The notes below the pieces were generated by a model that worked only from the letters and a program-made list of their open reading frames with translations, had not been told where the DNA came from and searched no databases. The position numbers were made by a program, and so were the translations under genes. From Escherichia coli (GTDB lineage: Bacteria > Pseudomonadota > Gammaproteobacteria > Enterobacterales > Enterobacteriaceae), in NCBI RefSeq assembly GCF_041886205.1, contig NZ_CP169029.1: a DNA stretch of 64,000 bases. One strand, 5' to 3'. Shown piece by piece: positions 1-60,655 of the stretch. Positions within the stretch are counted from its first letter, which is position 1, and every line of letters begins with the position of its first letter.

Positions 1-1
1 T

Positions 2-937
2 GATGGCGGACCGGCAGATTGCGTGTCGACCTTGCCATCAGCAGGTCTCTGGACACGCATGAATATCCCCCGAATGGTACAAGAGATTGACCGCTGCATT
101 GGGCTTAACGAGCATAACAGTCACTCGCGTTATGCCCCACCCGCCCTGCTGGCAACGGACCGCGCATTACTCCGCGACCCTTGTCTGGGTACGCCGGGTT
201 CAGGTAATCATTTTATTGAACTTCAGGTAGTTGATAGCGTGATCGATCGCCATGTAGCCTGGCAACAAGGGCTGAAAACGGGCGATATCGTGGTGATGAT
301 CCACAGTGGATCGCGAGATGTTGGCTTTTACGTCGGAAGACGCTGGATGGATCGCGCCCGTGCTGAATGGCCCATCGGACATAAACATCCACAAAGCGGG
401 TTATATGGTCTGGCAGGCGGACTGGCGGAGGAATATCTACAAGCGATGGGAATGGCGGCGCGTTACGCATGGTTAAATCGCGTGACCATTGCGGAAATGG
501 TTCGCGTATGTTTTGCCGATTTATTTCATCAGGATGATTCACATCTGGTGGTGGATGTGCCGCATAACATCATCCTTCGCGAACATGAAATGAATATTCA
601 TCGCAAAGGTGCAACACCGGCACACGCGGGCGCTCTGGCATTAATCCCCGGTTCAATGGGCGATTATACGTGGCTTGCGGTAGGTTGCGGCAACCCGGAG
701 TGGTTGTGGTCATGCAGTCACGGAGCAGGACGCAGCCAGCGTCGGCAGGCCATGCGCTCACGCGCGACTGAAGAGTCAACGCTGCCGTGGCAATGCGTCA
801 CATTGCGTGAAGAACGACGTCTTGAAGAAGCGCCAGCTGCTTATAAAGATATTGCTCCGGTTATCGAAGCCCAACAAGAAGCTGGATTGATTCAGCCTGC
901 GGTCAGATTTCGACCGTGGTTAACGTTTAAGGGGTAA
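2..937 (+). CDS. RtcB-family RNA ligase paralog, partial (5' end lies off the window start)
   Basis: Open frame runs from window edge with no upstream stop; translation carries RtcB hallmarks (GSGNHFIEL, HSGSRD, IPGSMG, CSHGAGR, AYKDI, C-terminal ...FKG) but is clearly divergent from the canonical E. coli RtcB as I recall it. Confidence 0.6.
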   Translation, partial: DGGPADCVSTLPSAGLWTRMNIPRMVQEIDRCIGLNEHNSHSRYAPPALLATDRALLRDPCLGTPGSGNHFIELQVVDSVIDRHVAWQQGLKTGDIVVMIHSGSRDVGFYVGRRWMDRARAEWPIGHKHPQSGLYGLAGGLAEEYLQAMGMAARYAWLNRVTIAEMVRVCFADLFHQDDSHLVVDVPHNIILREHEMNIHRKGATPAHAGALALIPGSMGDYTWLAVGCGNPEWLWSCSHGAGRSQRRQAMRSRATEESTLPWQCVTLREERRLEEAPAAYKDIAPVIEAQQEAGLIQPAVRFRPWLTFKG

Positions 938-1015
938 CTGAAATGATAAATGGCCTGCGGTTCTCACGCAGGTCAAATCTGGTATCTGCGTAAGCTAACA
1001 AACTTGTTTATCAAC

Positions 1016-1047
1016 AATTTCAGGCCATCCGAAGATGGCCTGAAATT
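1016..1047. terminator. Perfect 14-bp-stem hairpin between convergent RtcB-like ORF and mngB; possible bidirectional terminator
   Basis: aatttcaggccatc-cgaa-gatggcctgaaatt seen directly; flanking U-tracts are weak on both strands. Confidence 0.4.
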
Positions 1048-1081
1048 ATTGCCCCCCTTAGATACACTTTTAGCGCAATAA

Positions 1082-6540: not shown

Positions 6541-6544
6541 GCAC

Positions 6545-6643
6545 AAAAAAGGCCATCATACGATGGCCAACCATGTCGAAACCGACAGCCCTTCGCCATT
6601 CCTGTAGAGGGAAGCGGCGAGGGCTATTTCTTATTACAAGTAT
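6545..6643 (-). ncRNA. sdhX: SdhX (RybD) sRNA derived from the sucD 3'UTR, ending in an intrinsic terminator
   Basis: Region immediately 3' of the sucD stop on the minus strand ends in hairpin ggccatc-atac-gatggcc (6551..6568) followed by a U6 tract on the minus strand; position matches the known 3'UTR sRNA. Exact 5' end is not determinable from sequence. Confidence 0.55.
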
Positions 6644-7513: not shown

Positions 7514-8679
7514 TATTTCCCCTCCACTGCGGCAACAACCTGCTGAGCTGCATCCGTCAGACCTTTTGCTGCAATAATATTCAGGCCGCTGTCAGCCAGT
7601 TTCTTCGCGCCGAGTTCGGCGTTGTTACCTTCCAGACGTACCACGACCGGTACGTTAACACCCACTTCCGCTACCGCGCCGATGATACCGTCAGCGATCA
7701 GGTCGCAACGAACGATACCGCCGAAGATGTTAACCAGAACGGCTTTCACTTTGTCGTCAGAGAGGATGATTTTGAACGCTTCGGTTACACGTTCTTTGGT
7801 TGCGCCGCCGCCAACGTCCAGGAAGTTAGCCGGTTCGCCGCCGTGCAGTTTAACGATGTCCATCGTACCCATCGCCAGACCTGCGCCGTTAACCATACAA
7901 CCGATGTTACCGTCCAGCGCAACGTAGTTCAGTTCCCACTGTGCAGCCTGTGCTTCACGCGGATCTTCCTGCGACTGGTCACGCATTTCGCGCAGATCAG
8001 GCTGGCGGAACAGTGCGTTGCCATCAGCGCCCAGTTTGCCGTCGAGGCAAATCAGATCGCCCTGTTTGGTGATGACCAGCGGGTTGATTTCGATCAGCGC
8101 CAGGTCGCGCTCCAGGAAAATGGTCGCCAGGCCCATGAAGATTTTGGTGAACTGCTGAACCAGTTTACCTTCCAGACCCAGTTTGAACGCCAGCTCGCGT
8201 CCCTGATACGGCATCGGGCCAGTCAGCGGATCAAGCGCAACTTTGTGGATCAGGTGCGGAGTTTCTTCCGCCACTTTTTCGATTTCCACGCCGCCTTCGG
8301 TGGAGGCCATAAAGACCACGCGACGTGAACTACGGTCTACAACGGCACCGAGATACAGCTCTTTAGCGATATCGGTCGCCGCTTCAACCAGAATCTGGTT
8401 AACCGGTTGGCCATTGGCATCTGTTTGATACGTTACCAGACGTTTGCCCAGCCAGTTTTCTGCAAAAGCACGGATGTCTTCTTTGCTGTTTACAACTTTC
8501 ACACCGCCCGCTTTACCGCGGCCACCAGCGTGAACCTGACATTTCACTACCCACGGACCGGCACCGATTTTTGAAGCGGCTTCTTCTGCTTCGCGCGGAG
8601 TAGTACAGGCATAACCCACCGGTGCTGGTAAGCCATAGCGGGCAAAAAGTTGTTTTGCCTGATATTCATGTAAGTTCAT
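7513..8679 (-). CDS. sucC: Succinyl-CoA synthetase beta subunit
   Basis: 388-aa [21 protein letters not shown]... ATP-grasp. Confidence 0.97.
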
Positions 8680-8761
8680 GTGTTCTGTCCATCCTTCAGT
8701 AATCGTTATCTTTTAAACCGTAGACCGAATATTTCGTATCGCTTCCGGGTATTGTCGGTCA

Positions 8762-8935
8762 CCCGTAGGCCTGATAAGACGCGTTAAGCGTCGCATCAGG
8801 CATCGCTTGTCGGCTGCGGCGCGAGCGCCTTATCCGACCTACATTGGTGCTCCCCGTAGGCCTGATAAGACGCGTAAGCGTCGCATCAGGCTTCAATTGC
8901 CGGAGAAGGCGATAATGCCTTATCCGGTCTATAGT
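8762..8935. repeat. REP/BIME cluster in sucB-sucC intergenic region
   Basis: Multiple copies of the REP palindrome motif (gcctgataagacgcg...cgtcgcatcaggc; gccttatccg.cctac) seen directly. Confidence 0.7.
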
Positions 8936-8954
8936 GCAGGTGAATCTTAAACTA

Positions 8955-10172
8955 CTACACGTCCAGCAGCAGACGCGTCGGATCTTCCAGCAACTCTTTG
9001 ATCGTTACCAGGAAGCCCACGGATTCGCGACCATCGATCAGACGGTGATCGTAGGACAGCGCCAGGTACATCATCGGCAGGATCTCAACCTGACCATTCA
9101 CCGCCATCGGACGATCTTTGATAGCGTGCATACCCAGAATTGCGCTCTGCGGCGGGTTGATGATCGGCGTAGACATCAGGGAACCGAACACACCACCGTT
9201 GGTGATGGTGAAGTTACCACCGGTCAGATCTTCAACCGTCAGCTTGCCGTCACGGCCTTTAACTGCCAGCTCTTTGATTTTCTTCTCGATGTCTGCCATG
9301 CCGAGGGTATCGACATCACGCAGTACCGGCGTCACCAGGCCGCGCGGCGTAGAAACCGCCATGCTGACGTCGAAATAGTTGTGGTAAACCACGTCATCAC
9401 CGTCGATAGAAGCATTCACTTCCGGGTAACGTTTCAGGGCTTCAACCACCGCTTTCACGTAGAAGGACATAAAACCCAGACGGATGCCGTGGCGTTTTTC
9501 AAACGCTTCACCGTACTGCTTACGCAGATCCATAATCGGCTTCATGTTGACTTCGTTGAACGTGGTCAGCATGGCGGTGGAGTTTTTCGCTTCCAGCAGA
9601 CGCTCTGCCACACGCTTACGCAGGCGAGTCATCGGGACACGTTTTTCACTACGTGCAGCCAGAGCCGGTTGCGCCGCCGGAGCAGCCGCTGCCGGAGCAG
9701 ACTCTTTCGCCGGGGCTTTCGCCAGATGTTTTTCCACATCTTCACGAGTCAGACGACCACCCACACCGGTGCCTTTAATGGCGCTGGCGTCGAGATTGTG
9801 TTCAGCCAGCAGGCGACGGATCGCCGGGCTTAACGCATCGTTGTTTTGCTCTTCCAGAGACGCCTGCTGGCGTTGCGCCGGAGTGGACGCTTTCTCTTCA
9901 GATTTGGCGCTGGTTTCTTTACCGGCGCTGTTGCCTTCACGCAGGCGACCAAGGATCTGACGAGACGTTACCGTTGTACCTTCATCTTCCAGAACCGCAT
10001 CCAGAATGCCGTCTGCTGATGCCGGTACTTCCAGTACCACTTTGTCAGTTTCGATTTCTACCAGCACTTCATCACGTACGACTGCGTCGCCGGGTTTTTT
10101 ATGCCAGGTTGCGACGGTGGCATCGGCTACGGATTCAGGCAGGTCAGGGACCAGAATATCTACGCTACTCAT
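8955..10172 (-). CDS. sucB: 2-oxoglutarate dehydrogenase E2 (dihydrolipoyl succinyltransferase)
   Basis: 405-aa ORF with N-terminal lipoyl domain ([11 protein letters not shown]) and Ala/Pro-rich linker. Confidence 0.97.
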
Positions 10173-13166: not shown

Positions 13167-13287
13167 CGCCTGATGCGCTGCGCTTATCAGGCCTACGGGT
13201 AATGGCTTGTAGGCCGGATAAGGCGTTCACGCCGCATCCGGCACTGGTTGCCTGATGCGACGCTTGCGCGTCTTATCAGGCCTACGG
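13167..13287. repeat. REP/BIME cluster in sdhB-sucA intergenic region
   Basis: REP palindrome motifs (gccggataaggcgttcacgccgcatccggc, cttatcaggcctac) seen directly. Confidence 0.7.
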
Positions 13288-30639: not shown

Positions 30640-30776
30640 GATGCCTGATGCGACGCTTGACGCGTCTTATCAGGCCTACGTATTTCCTGCAATTTATTGA
30701 ATTTGCACAAATTTGTAGGCTGGATAAGGCGTTCACGCCGCATCCGGCATCTGGGCTCGATTGCCTGACGCGTCTG
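30640..30776. repeat. REP/BIME cluster between convergent dtpD and phr
   Basis: REP motifs (tgcctgatgcgacgc...cgtcttatcaggcctac; gccggatgcggcgtgaacgccttatcc on the opposite strand) seen directly. Confidence 0.7.
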
Positions 30777-32701: not shown

Positions 32702-32802
32702 TACTGCTCCTGAACGGTTTACAGGAGTAAGTGTAGACGGCGAAAAGAAAAAAACCGCCAGCATCTCCACTAGCGGTTTTCAATGTATTCAAAACTCAGC
32801 AA

Positions 32803-40413: not shown

Positions 40414-41087
40414 CAAACGTTCTGATTGTTGAAGATGAACAGGCTATTCGTCGCTTTCTGCGCACGGCGCTGGAGGGCGACGGTATGCGCGTCTTTGAGG
40501 CCGAAACGCTGCAACGCGGCTTGCTGGAAGCGGCAACCCGTAAGCCAGATTTGATTATTCTCGATCTCGGCCTGCCCGATGGTGATGGGATTGAGTTTAT
40601 CCGCGACCTGCGCCAGTGGAGCGCGGTGCCGGTGATAGTGCTTTCCGCACGCAGCGAAGAGAGCGACAAAATCGCCGCGCTGGATGCCGGAGCGGATGAT
40701 TATCTGAGTAAGCCGTTTGGCATTGGCGAATTGCAGGCCCGTCTGCGCGTCGCATTACGCCGCCATTCAGCCACTGCCGCGCCCGATCCGGTAGTGAAAT
40801 TTTCCGATGTTACCGTCGATTTAGCCGCCCGCGTGATTCACCGGGGTGAGGAAGAGGTGCATCTCACCCCGATTGAATTCCGCCTGCTGGCGGTGCTGCT
40901 CAACAATGCCGGAAAAGTGCTCACCCAGCGCCAGCTTCTTAACCAGGTGTGGGGGCCAAACGCGGTCGAACACAGTCATTATTTGCGTATTTATATGGGA
41001 CATCTGCGACAAAAACTGGAACAGGATCCCGCTCGCCCCCGCCATTTCATTACTGAAACCGGTATTGGGTATCGGTTTATGCTTTAG
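40410..41087 (+). CDS. kdpE: OmpR-family response regulator KdpE
   Basis: 225-aa ORF (GTG start) [17 protein letters not shown]...; 4-bp overlap with kdpD. Confidence 0.95.
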   Translation: MTNVLIVEDEQAIRRFLRTALEGDGMRVFEAETLQRGLLEAATRKPDLIILDLGLPDGDGIEFIRDLRQWSAVPVIVLSARSEESDKIAALDAGADDYLSKPFGIGELQARLRVALRRHSATAAPDPVVKFSDVTVDLAARVIHRGEEEVHLTPIEFRLLAVLLNNAGKVLTQRQLLNQVWGPNAVEHSHYLRIYMGHLRQKLEQDPARPRHFITETGIGYRFML

Positions 41088-41099
41088 GCGGTTGAATTA

Positions 41100-41182
41100 C
41101 CGGATGCGGCGTATACGCTTTATATGGCCTACGTAATGCTCCCGTAGGCATGATAAAACGCGCTAGCGTCGCATCAGGCATT
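41100..41182. repeat. REP-like palindromic element(s) between kdpE and ybfP
   Basis: cggatgcggcgtatacgc..., cccgtaggcatgataaaacgcgctagcgtcgcatcaggca seen directly. Confidence 0.55.
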
Positions 41183-41201
41183 GGCACTCATATCGAAATG
41201 T

Positions 41202-41741: not shown

Positions 41742-41850
41742 TTTTTGCCGGATGCGGCGTGAACGCCTTATCCGGCCTACAAAATCGCGCAAATTCAATA
41801 TATTGCACCATCTTTGTAGGCCTGATAAGCGTAGCGCATCAGGCAGTCAT
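41742..41850. repeat. REP/BIME cluster between pgm and ybfP
   Basis: gccggatgcggcgtgaacgccttatccggcctac ... gtaggcctgataagcgtagcgcatcaggc seen directly. Confidence 0.7.
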
Positions 41851-48764: not shown

Positions 48765-49114
48765 GGGTTAATCCTCTTTGACGTATAAATTGCTGCACCA
48801 AAGGTGAACAGCGAAAAAATAAAAATTAAAAAAGTAGCGTTGAGAAAAGTCTCGCTGACTACAGGAACAGACTATTTTTCGCGACGCGAATTATCAATCT
48901 CTTTCTGTAACCAGAATGTAAGAACATGAGCAACCGCACATATTTTGATGATTTTTGTTATAAGGCTTAAGTTTGCGGTTGAAAGGCTTGCAGAAGAATA
49001 AAAGCGTGAAATTCCAGCAAGATGAAAGCGGTTACATTTTATTTAATTATGTTTTGTTATTTTAAATTTATTTTATGGATAAATTGCGAAGCGGAATTAA
49101 TTCGCGAAGAAAAG

Positions 49115-49146
49115 CAGAAAAAACGCCGCTGAACGCGGCGTTTTGG
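49115..49146 (-). terminator. Intrinsic terminator downstream of glnS
   Basis: aaaaaacgccgc-tgaa-cgcggcgtttt: GC stem with A-run/T-run on either side, so it could function in both directions. Confidence 0.6.
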
Positions 49147-49159
49147 ATTGTTTGCATAT

Positions 49160-49330
49160 TTCTTGCCGGATGCGGCGTGAACGCCTTAACCGGCCTACAA
49201 AAGCACGCAAACTCAATATATTGCAGAGATCATGTAGGCCTGATAAGCGTAGTGCATCAGGCAATTTAGCGTTTGAAACTGTTTGTCTGTTCCTTGCCGG
49301 ATGCGACGTAAACGCCCCATCCGGCATAGC
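49160..49330. repeat. REP/BIME cluster between glnS and chiP
   Basis: Three REP copies (gccggatgcggcgtgaacgccttaaccggcctac; gtaggcctgataagcgtagtgcatcaggc; gccggatgcgacgtaaacgccccatccggc) seen directly. Confidence 0.7.
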
Positions 49331-51006: not shown

Positions 51007-51161
51007 CGTGGATTCCTCAAAGCGTAAACAACGTATAACGGCGTATGATCTTATAAGCGGGACAGGCTGACAACTGTTAGTTTTTTAAAATTGATAATCT
51101 AACAAGGATTATGGGGATGATTGATGAAAAAAAAGCGGCAGAGAAGATCTCCACCGCTTGT

Positions 51162-51200
51162 CATTGTTGGATGCGACGCTCAAGCGTCGCATCAGGCATA
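51162..51200. repeat. Single REP element between nagE and glnS
   Basis: ggatgcgacgctcaagcgtcgcatcaggc seen directly. Confidence 0.5.
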
Positions 51201-57531: not shown

Positions 57532-57561
57532 CCACGTCTCAGGACGTGGTTTCTTATTTTT
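57532..57561 (+). terminator. Intrinsic terminator after the nagBACD operon
   Basis: ccacgtc-tcag-gacgtgg followed by tttcttattttt. Confidence 0.5.
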
Positions 57562-57765
57562 ACCCATCATTAAAATCATCCCATTCAATAAAACCCGCCA
57601 AAAATTATCGATCCATCAATAAATACGCCACCGCACCATCCCCTTTTTCACAAATCAGCAATCACCATTACGTTTTTTATTTTTCCACCGCCAAATCTCT
57701 TGCGCACGTTGCTGCTTTGCGGCATTTTTTAAACAAGCAACCGCAACAAATTAATGGAGAAGGTT

Positions 57766-59808: not shown

Positions 59809-59885
59809 GGCTACGTAGCTCAGTTGGTTAGAGCACATCACTCATAATGATGGGGTCACAGGTTCGAATCCCGTCGTAGCCACCA
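59809..59885 (+). tRNA. metT: tRNA-Met (elongator, anticodon CAU)
   Basis: 77-nt cloverleaf ending CCA; anticodon loop ctCATaa read directly. Confidence 0.95.
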
Positions 59886-59893
59886 TCTTTTTT

Positions 59894-59978
59894 GCGGGAG
59901 TGGCGAAATTGGTAGACGCACCAGATTTAGGTTCTGGCGCCGCAAGGTGTGCGAGTTCAAGTCTCGCCTCCCGCACCA
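59894..59978 (+). tRNA. leuW: tRNA-Leu (anticodon UAG)
   Basis: 85-nt class II tRNA with long variable arm, ending CCA; anticodon loop ttTAGgt. Confidence 0.95.
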
Positions 59979-60001
59979 TTCACCAGAAAGCGTTGTACGG
60001 A

Positions 60002-60076
60002 TGGGGTATCGCCAAGCGGTAAGGCACCGGTTTTTGATACCGGCATTCCCTGGTTCGAATCCAGGTACCCCAGCCA
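60002..60076 (+). tRNA. glnU: tRNA-Gln (anticodon UUG)
   Basis: 75-nt tRNA tggggtatcgccaagcggtaagg...cca; anticodon loop ttTTGat. Confidence 0.95.
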
Positions 60077-60110
60077 TCTTCTTCGAGTAAGCGGTTCACC
60101 GCCCGGTTAT

Positions 60111-60185
60111 TGGGGTATCGCCAAGCGGTAAGGCACCGGTTTTTGATACCGGCATTCCCTGGTTCGAATCCAGGTACCCCAGCCA
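60111..60185 (+). tRNA. glnW: tRNA-Gln (anticodon UUG), identical copy
   Basis: Identical to the glnU copy, including its 5' leader. Confidence 0.95.
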
Positions 60186-60200
60186 TCGAAGAAACAATCT

Positions 60201-60277
60201 GGCTACGTAGCTCAGTTGGTTAGAGCACATCACTCATAATGATGGGGTCACAGGTTCGAATCCCGTCGTAGCCACCA
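60201..60277 (+). tRNA. metU: tRNA-Met (elongator, anticodon CAU), second copy
   Basis: Identical to the metT copy. Confidence 0.95.
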
Positions 60278-60324
60278 AATTCTGAATGTGTCGAATATGT
60301 TCGGCAAATTCAAAACCAATTTGT

Positions 60325-60399
60325 TGGGGTATCGCCAAGCGGTAAGGCACCGGATTCTGATTCCGGCATTCCGAGGTTCGAATCCTCGTACCCCAGCCA
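60325..60399 (+). tRNA. glnV: tRNA-Gln (anticodon CUG)
   Basis: 75-nt tRNA; anticodon loop ttCTGat. Confidence 0.95.
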
Positions 60400-60436
60400 A
60401 TTTATTCAAGACGCTTACCTTGTAAGTGCACCCAGT

Positions 60437-60511
60437 TGGGGTATCGCCAAGCGGTAAGGCACCGGATTCTGATTCCGGCATTCCGAGGTTCGAATCCTCG
60501 TACCCCAGCCA
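60437..60511 (+). tRNA. glnX: tRNA-Gln (anticodon CUG), identical copy
   Basis: Identical to the glnV copy. Confidence 0.95.
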
Positions 60512-60517
60512 CATTAA

Positions 60518-60556: not shown

Positions 60557-60655
60557 ATTCAATGTCGAATGCGATGTTGACACGTCTTATCCTTCAATGT
60601 CGGATGCGACGCTGCCGCGTCTTATCCGACCTACGGTTGGCACGCATCCGGCAAT
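60557..60655. repeat. REP/BIME cluster between tRNA operon and ubiF
   Basis: tcggatgcgacgctgccgcgtcttatccgacctac and related copies seen directly. Confidence 0.65.

Follow-up and report, generated by a model that had tools for sequence, protein, structure and literature searches.

The repeats at eight intergenic sites described here are canonical E. coli REPs, i.e. palindromic units of the types Y, Z1 and Z2 that stand singly or are clustered as BIMEs; we consider this reading about 97% probable, and nothing contradicting it was found. Repeats of this kind are already known, well described and ordinary textbook biology, with regard to REP types and BIME classes (PMC8266576, PMC1187871) as well as to BIME polymorphism and the RayT transposase (PMC3333891).

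The window, by which we mean the whole stretch of 64,000 nucleotides that was analyzed, is a segment of the E. coli chromosome reaching from the edge of an rtcB island via mngB to ybeZ. It closely corresponds to the reverse complement of positions 1223903-1287902 of strain wlxctx60 (NZ_AP045833.1), from which it differs by 7 SNPs and two 1-nt gaps, the match being 100% over the first 25 kb of the window. In window orientation, the gene order is rtcB-like, mngB, mngA, mngR, sucD, sucC, sucB, sucA, sdhB through gltA, then dtpD, phr, ybgA, ybfA, kdpFABCDE, ybfP, pgm through chiP, glnS, nagE, and finally asnB, an array of seven tRNA genes, ubiF, miaB and ybeZ. The names of the gene pairs come from the RefSeq annotation of the near-identical wlxctx60, to which the window was mapped, and the start and stop codons of the genes adjoining the repeats were verified directly in the window sequence.

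Repeat units at eight intergenic sites

The window was scanned by blastn-short with the E. coli consensus of each unit type (Y, 35 nt; Z1, 30 nt; Z2, 37 nt). The scan returned 18 units at 33-57 bits and 79-100% identity, all other hits remaining at 25 bits or below, and degenerate units occur besides. These 18 clear units lie precisely at the eight intergenic sites that the earlier note had listed, and all eight gene pairs were named correctly there. The exact 34-nt Y sequence given in that note occurs at 13209-13242 (minus strand) and 41747-41780 (plus strand), where shuffled sequences lead one to expect 0, and with one mismatch at 30715-30748 (minus) and 49165-49198 (plus); the Z2 variant gcctgatgcgacgct has 8 matches compared to 0.17 expected by chance. 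The interval highlighted in the note, 8700-8950, does hold a REP array, but the Y units there have diverged from the consensus (86% and 79% identity), and canonical Y units are found at other sites. The sites, referred to as S1 to S8, and their units are as follows.

S1, sucB-sucC, 8765-8932: Z2 (minus), Y (plus), Z2 (minus), Y (plus), plus a degenerate fifth unit
8718-8754, minus: degenerate fifth unit, resembling Y, with GTAG at 8720; its stretch GTAGACCGAATATTTCG...CCGGG aligns with Y-family units
8765-8802, minus: Z2 unit, 92% to the Z2 consensus, 45.7 bits; hairpin of -21.8 kcal/mol
8808-8842, plus: diverged Y unit, 86%, 41 bits
8855-8891, minus: Z2 unit, 94%, 52 bits
8898-8932, plus: diverged Y unit (S1d), 79%; tag ATAG; starts 22 nt past the sucB stop
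S2, sdhB-sucA, 13167-13285: Z1 (plus), Y (minus), Z2 (plus)
13167-13196, plus: Z1 unit, 97%, 44 bits
13209-13243, minus: Y unit, identical to the consensus
13249-13285, plus: Z2 unit, 3 nt from the sdhB stop
S3, dtpD-phr, 30642-30749: Z2 (plus), Y (minus)
30642-30679, plus: Z2 unit, 14 nt past the dtpD stop
30680-30714: 35-nt linker with IHF-like site ATTCAATAAATTG on the minus strand
30715-30749, minus: Y unit, 27 nt from the phr stop
S4, kdpE-ybfP, 41098-41180: Y (plus), Z2 (minus)
41098-41132, plus: decayed Y unit, -6.8 kcal/mol, 10 nt past the kdpE stop
41144-41180, minus: decayed Z2 unit, -10.5 kcal/mol, 21 nt from the ybfP stop
S5, ybfP-pgm, 41746-41845: Y (plus), Z1 (minus)
41746-41780, plus: Y unit of a BIME-1, identical to the consensus
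41781-41815: 35-nt linker with IHF-like site ATTCAATATATTG
41816-41845, minus: Z1 unit, identical to the consensus; 11 extra nt at its outer edge in K-12
S6, chiP-glnS, 49164-49329: Y (plus), Z1 (minus), Y (plus)
49164-49198, plus: Y unit from the consensus scan
49199-49233: 35-nt linker with IHF-like site ACTCAATATATTG
49234-49263, minus: Z1 unit from the consensus scan
49295-49329, plus: second Y unit (S6c), a variant without GTAG, 12 nt from the glnS stop
S7, nagE-glnS, 51162-51198, minus: single Z2-derived unit, a near-perfect palindrome without GTAG, 9 nt past the nagE stop
S8, tRNA-ubiF, 60598-60634, plus: single Z2 unit, 30 nt from the ubiF stop

In a GTAG-first alignment, the GTAG tag is kept in 15 of the 18 units, the exceptions being S1d (ATAG), S6c and S7, and the GATAAG...CGCATC (AA/GC) bulge is kept in nearly all of them. 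The predicted hairpins reach -10 to -24 kcal/mol in 17 of the 18 units, the exception being the Y unit of S4, of which, as of the whole Y-Z2 pair, a better-preserved copy exists in strain CFSAN061770. Within multi-unit sites the orientations alternate, with linkers of 5 nt and 11-13 nt at S1, S2 and S4; the 35-nt linkers of S3, S5 and S6 carry IHF-like sites with one mismatch to WATCAANNNNTTR. The unit S6c is part of a 131-bp direct repeat together with 49138-49197 (60 nt aligned, 77%), in which a non-REP flank is combined with a Y unit (49138-49328), and S8 is flanked by weak fragments at 60569-60591 and 60643-60653.

All units are intergenic although intergenic sequence makes up 10.5% of the window, a placement with a chance of about 1.5e-8 for eight sites. 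Of the 28 spacers that measure at least 60 bp, 8 contain units; these 8 all lie between tandem or convergent genes, and none is a divergent promoter region. Each of the eight sites is located at the 3' end of a gene. The distance between a stop codon and its nearest unit ranges from 3 to 54 nt (sdhB 3, nagE 9, kdpE 10, glnS 12, dtpD 14, ybfP 21, sucB 22, phr 27, ubiF 30 and pgm 54).

An A-run at 51127-51135, 27 nt from the S7 REP, counts 8 A in the window versus 9 in wlxctx60 and K-12, which could be true slippage or a sequencing artefact. The seven tRNA genes at 59809-60512 (Met, Leu, Gln x2, Met, Gln x2) contain internal direct repeats of 82-87 nt and are the same as metT-leuW-glnUW-metU-glnVX of K-12. 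Positions 6541-6643 in the sucD 3' UTR and 48765-48862 upstream of chiP correspond to the K-12 sRNA genes sdhX and chiZ, respectively, neither of which was reported by the Rfam scan at the gathering threshold.

Compared to the E. coli REPs of types Y, Z1 and Z2 (Stern, Higgins; Gilson, Bachellier, Hofnung; PMC8266576, PMC3333891), the units in the window share the consensus at up to 100% identity, the GTAG tag, the AA/GC bulge and the extragenic location at 3' ends. REPs of this family number in the hundreds per genome; BIME queries from the window matched at a median of at least 33-40 places per genome. There is no substantive difference, with S1d, both S4 units, S6c and S7 being decayed or devoid of GTAG. 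The REPIN/RAYT system of Pseudomonas (PMC3116915) likewise comprises a domesticated Y1 transposase in single copy along with REPs in inverted pairs, the pair being the probable unit of mobility, but belongs to a different sequence family.

With respect to BIME classes, S1 resembles BIME-2, i.e. tandem Y-Z2 arrays such as REP325/naRNA4 (RF02564), in its alternating Z2-Y-Z2-Y order, its linkers of 5 and 12 nt, its period of 90-91 bp and the polymorphism in unit number between strains that is described for this class (PMC1187871, PMC3333891). It differs from REP325 in having 4-5 instead of 12 units, in its diverged Y units, and in its location inside an operon of essential metabolism, whereas REP325 lies between yjdM and yjdN. 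BIME-1 (alias RIP/RIB), in which a Y unit is joined to a Z1 unit by the 35-nt L linker with an IHF site, is exactly what is found at S5 and in the first two units of S6, the latter site having one Y unit more; at S3 this linker is combined with Z2 instead of Z1, which makes the site atypical. Judged by units and linkers, S1 is BIME-2-like, whereas neither S2 (Z1-Y-Z2) nor S3 (Z2-linker-Y) has a typical arrangement. As classes, BIME-1 is known to bind IHF through its 35-nt linker, and BIME-2, with its Y-Z2 arrays, to bind DNA gyrase.

The array in the sucB-sucC spacer

The S1 array (8718-8932) is located inside the sdhCDAB-sucABCD operon and ends 85 nt before the start of sucC, or 38 nt if the degenerate fifth unit is counted. 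The RNA of the spacer (minus strand) has a predicted folding energy of -106 kcal/mol (z = -6.2), and in the predicted structure the outermost units, i.e. the fifth unit and the unit at 8898-8932, pair up and enclose three inner hairpins.

Among 5,426 complete E. coli genomes, 2,009 (37%) carry a window-like S1 allele, defined here and for the other sites as at least 80% of the query covered. In a spread sample of 59 chromosomes, 37 had a short allele with a span of 489 bp, which has a single 31-nt GTAG...CTAC hairpin (e.g. O157 and ATCC 11775) and whose left boundary is the outer GTAG that it has in common with the fifth unit of the window. The allele of 670-671 bp with five units, present in the window and in K-12, was found in 9 of these chromosomes, an allele of 761 bp with seven units, owing to one extra Z2-Y pair of 90 bp, in 12, and an allele of 657 bp in one. 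Since 63% of the complete E. coli genomes have the 31-nt hairpin only, the multi-unit array is dispensable.

For the outgroups, an exact-match scan using sucC's 5' end yielded 50 enterobacterial species, from 45 of which a clean sucB-sucC spacer was obtained. This spacer measures 87-152 nt in 44 of the 45 species, the exception being Escherichia whittamii with 274 nt and five units as in the window. An element with GTAG...CTAC as its bounds is present in 26 of the 45, starting 21-30 nt past the sucB stop; among these 26 are species of Citrobacter, Salmonella, Klebsiella, Raoultella, Trabulsiella and Escherichia. The length of the element is 27, 41, 51, 64, 71, 83 or 212 nt, ranging from a 27-nt hairpin up to a five-unit array of 212 nt. 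As the outgroup spacers are mostly short, the short form is taken to be ancestral, the REP slot between sucB and sucC to be old, and the multi-unit array to have arisen within Escherichia.

Two Rfam families match above their gathering scores, naRNA4 at S2 (13212-13282, 88 bits) and S1 (8768-8839, 64 bits), and ES036/CssrF at the linkers of S3 (30672-30714, 75 bits) and S5 (41781-41823). These matches could be taken to mean that the arrays are genes for trans-acting sRNAs, of which those of the naRNA4/CssrE type would organize the nucleoid together with HU and ES036/CssrF would be a separate sRNA, all the more since about 80% of REPs are transcribed and naRNA4 associates with HU (PMC4550694). 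However, both families were made from REP/BIME sequence, naRNA4 being built on Y-Z2 pairs of REP325, so that a match merely restates membership. Moreover, no promoter-like site was found at S1 or in the rest of the sucB-sucC spacer, and REP325/naRNA4 was reported to act locally in cis, with no measurable nucleoid compaction (10.64898/2026.03.23.713779), which makes sRNA genes an improbable explanation.

That all sites follow shortly after stop codons and that every unit folds as a hairpin would also suit ordinary gene-specific intrinsic terminators or regulatory hairpins, which would be alike only as GC-rich palindromes. Yet between unrelated loci the units share 85-100% identity over 30-37 nt, loop and bulge included, no intrinsic terminator (hairpin plus T-run) was found in 8600-9000 on either strand, and true terminators adjoin the REPs as separate hairpins at pgm and nagD. 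This reading, to which we assign next to no probability, is refuted by the sequence identity between the sites. The small ORFs of 23-47 aa that overlap S1 in several frames could in turn be supposed to encode real micro-proteins. They run on both strands and in overlapping frames as a palindromic repeat predicts, are gone in those genomes that have the short S1 allele, and are annotated neither in K-12 nor in wlxctx60; they are thus spurious, as the earlier note had stated, and their being genuine would be extremely surprising. On these counts, sRNA genes and micro-proteins are rejected as well, and the identification of the arrays as REP/BIME elements is retained.

As parts of a 3' UTR or of an intercistronic RNA, transcribed REPs fold into GC-rich hairpins with the conserved AA/GC bulge. 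Such hairpins hinder 3'->5' exonucleases and thereby stabilize the upstream message, and they can also serve as partial, Rho-assisted attenuators, lowering the expression of the downstream gene. A dual role as stabilizer and attenuator has been described for REP325 in a 2026 preprint, according to which REP effects are context-dependent and not uniform (bioRxiv 10.64898/2026.03.23.713779). By analogy with other REP loci and with REP325, the S1 array most likely sets the ratio of sucAB to sucCD transcripts, which would favour sucAB. For the array between sucB and sucC, the searchable literature yielded data on neither transcripts nor half-life nor termination, and the only papers found to deal with the regions of the sucB-sucC and sdhB-sucA REPs are sRNA papers, which do not mention the REPs. 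REPs within 15 nt of a stop codon reportedly stall terminating ribosomes, a finding ascribed to Liang, Rudd and Deutscher (Mol Cell, 2015); five sites in the window have a unit within 15 nt of a stop and would be close enough for such stalling. A further-reaching and rather doubtful idea is that the spacer contains an ancient fixed slot, in which units would be exchanged and amplified between the outer GTAG and CTAC ends by cleavage and joining of the RayT type, so that the number of units would act as a heritable, lineage-specific dial of the sucAB:sucCD ratio.

Variation among strains and differences from K-12

The comparison across the 5,426 complete genomes revealed variation at the multi-unit sites. 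Window-like alleles are present in 2,886 genomes for S2 (spans of 321, 421 and 470-482 bp), in 1,981 for S3 (391 versus 283 bp), in 2,013 for S5 and in 4,491 for S6, where spans of 511 versus 373-381 bp reflect a 131-bp unit, and where the 131-bp repeat is present in one copy less in about half of the genomes sampled. The kdpE-REP-ybfP arrangement of S4 is found in 253 of the 5,426 genomes (4.7%), in two haplotypes about 8% apart. With regard to the single units, 3,672 genomes have the window-like allele of S7, whose unit was wholly covered in 12 of 14 sampled rows and partially matched in 2, and S8 is near-fixed, with 5,366 genomes (99%). BIME-1 elements have been described as present or absent and BIME-2 elements as variable in length (PMC1187871, PMC3333891), and 100 K-12-specific "loops" are BIME-associated according to PMC1187871, which cites Bachellier et al. 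1997, and PMC3333891. The variation at the window sites matches this published BIME polymorphism. Compared to K-12, the REP sites are not enriched in SNPs, with 18 in 939 bases versus about 2.4% overall.

Alignment of the window to K-12 MG1655 revealed four structural differences. Window positions 1-1078 form the edge of an island of 15.5 kb, which lies between mngB and cydA and in place of which K-12 has 470 bp with a BIME. The island encodes an RtcB-like protein, a LysR regulator, CobO, a class I fumarase, a dicarboxylate symporter, a methylaspartate ammonia-lyase and glmS/glmL/glmE, the last three being genes of glutamate (methylaspartate) mutase; no REP was found at its flanks in this strain, including the window side of the mngB junction. 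The window lacks the 9.5-kb RhsC element that K-12 has (rhsC through ybfD), ybgA and ybfA being adjacent to each other, and no REP was found on either side of the junction at 32739-32749 (within 32702-32802). At S4, where K-12 has a segment of 5.15 kb with speFL-speF-potE-ybfI-ybfG, the window has 115 bp (41086-41200) with the Y-Z2 pair instead. Finally, K-12 has an insertion of about 170 bp with a BIME-1 between nagD and asnB (K-12 699377-699546), which the window lacks; this spacer is empty, as in the window, in 3,111 genomes (57%), a polymorphism of the presence/absence kind reported for BIME-1. In three of these four differences (n = 4), one of the two alleles contains a REP.

Smaller differences comprise an 11-nt insertion in K-12, located right at the outer edge of the Z1 unit in S5, and 1-nt indels in S1 and S6. 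The earlier note had linked two of the sites to indel junctions with respect to K-12, a link that holds in part. Among the eight sites, one, S4, is indeed a gene-content junction with REPs on the window side, and one more, S5, merely has a small indel at its edge. Two additional REP-linked differences, the BIME between mngB and cydA and the BIME-1 between nagD and asnB, are visible from the K-12 side only.

Two observations concern the sequences around these junctions. The K-12 pseudogene ybfI (716723-716864) is a second copy, 89% identical, of the last 142 bp of kdpE (window 40944-41085), so that in K-12 two copies of the kdpE 3' end, in direct orientation, flank the speF-potE segment. The intrinsic terminator of nagD keeps its T-run in the window (57540-57570), whereas the K-12 insertion, located directly after the stem, replaces it.

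In strain ESDR8, kdpE is joined directly to pgm via a hybrid Y unit (9389-9550 of the ESDR8 locus), whose left flank is that of S4 and whose right flank is that of S5, ybfP being deleted. This join is clearly the product of REP-by-REP recombination between the Y units of S4 and S5, and the hybrid unit is direct evidence that REPs mediate such rearrangements.

Presumed mobility and biological meaning of the repeats

REPs are non-autonomous elements, and the transposase RayT (TnpA-REP), encoded by a single-copy gene, would move and amplify them in trans. An intact rayT gene (WP_000006256.1) is located outside the window in wlxctx60, between yafL and an fhiA-like pseudogene. The GTAG tag was reported to be essential for recognition by RayT (PMC8266576), and S1d, S6c and S7, which have no GTAG, as well as the decayed units of S4 are probably no longer RayT substrates. 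In the case of S1d, one SNP at position 8932 turns GTAG, as present in K-12 and other strains, into ATAG; because GTAG is needed for recognition, this unit would be immobilized. Being dispersed, REPs are, in addition, substrates for homologous recombination and for the gain and loss of units, which is why several of them mark differences in length between strains.

The main use of these results is annotation hygiene, i.e. the masking of REPs against spurious ORFs and spurious "sRNA" calls. Furthermore, the REPs explain several of the length differences between this strain and K-12, and the window provides a compact illustration of the 3' location of REPs, of the presence and absence of BIME-1, of length variation in BIME-2 and of gene deletion by REP-by-REP recombination. 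As a mildly useful lead, the natural allelic series of 1, 5 and 7 units in the sdh-suc operon offers a ready-made test of REPs as stabilizers and attenuators.
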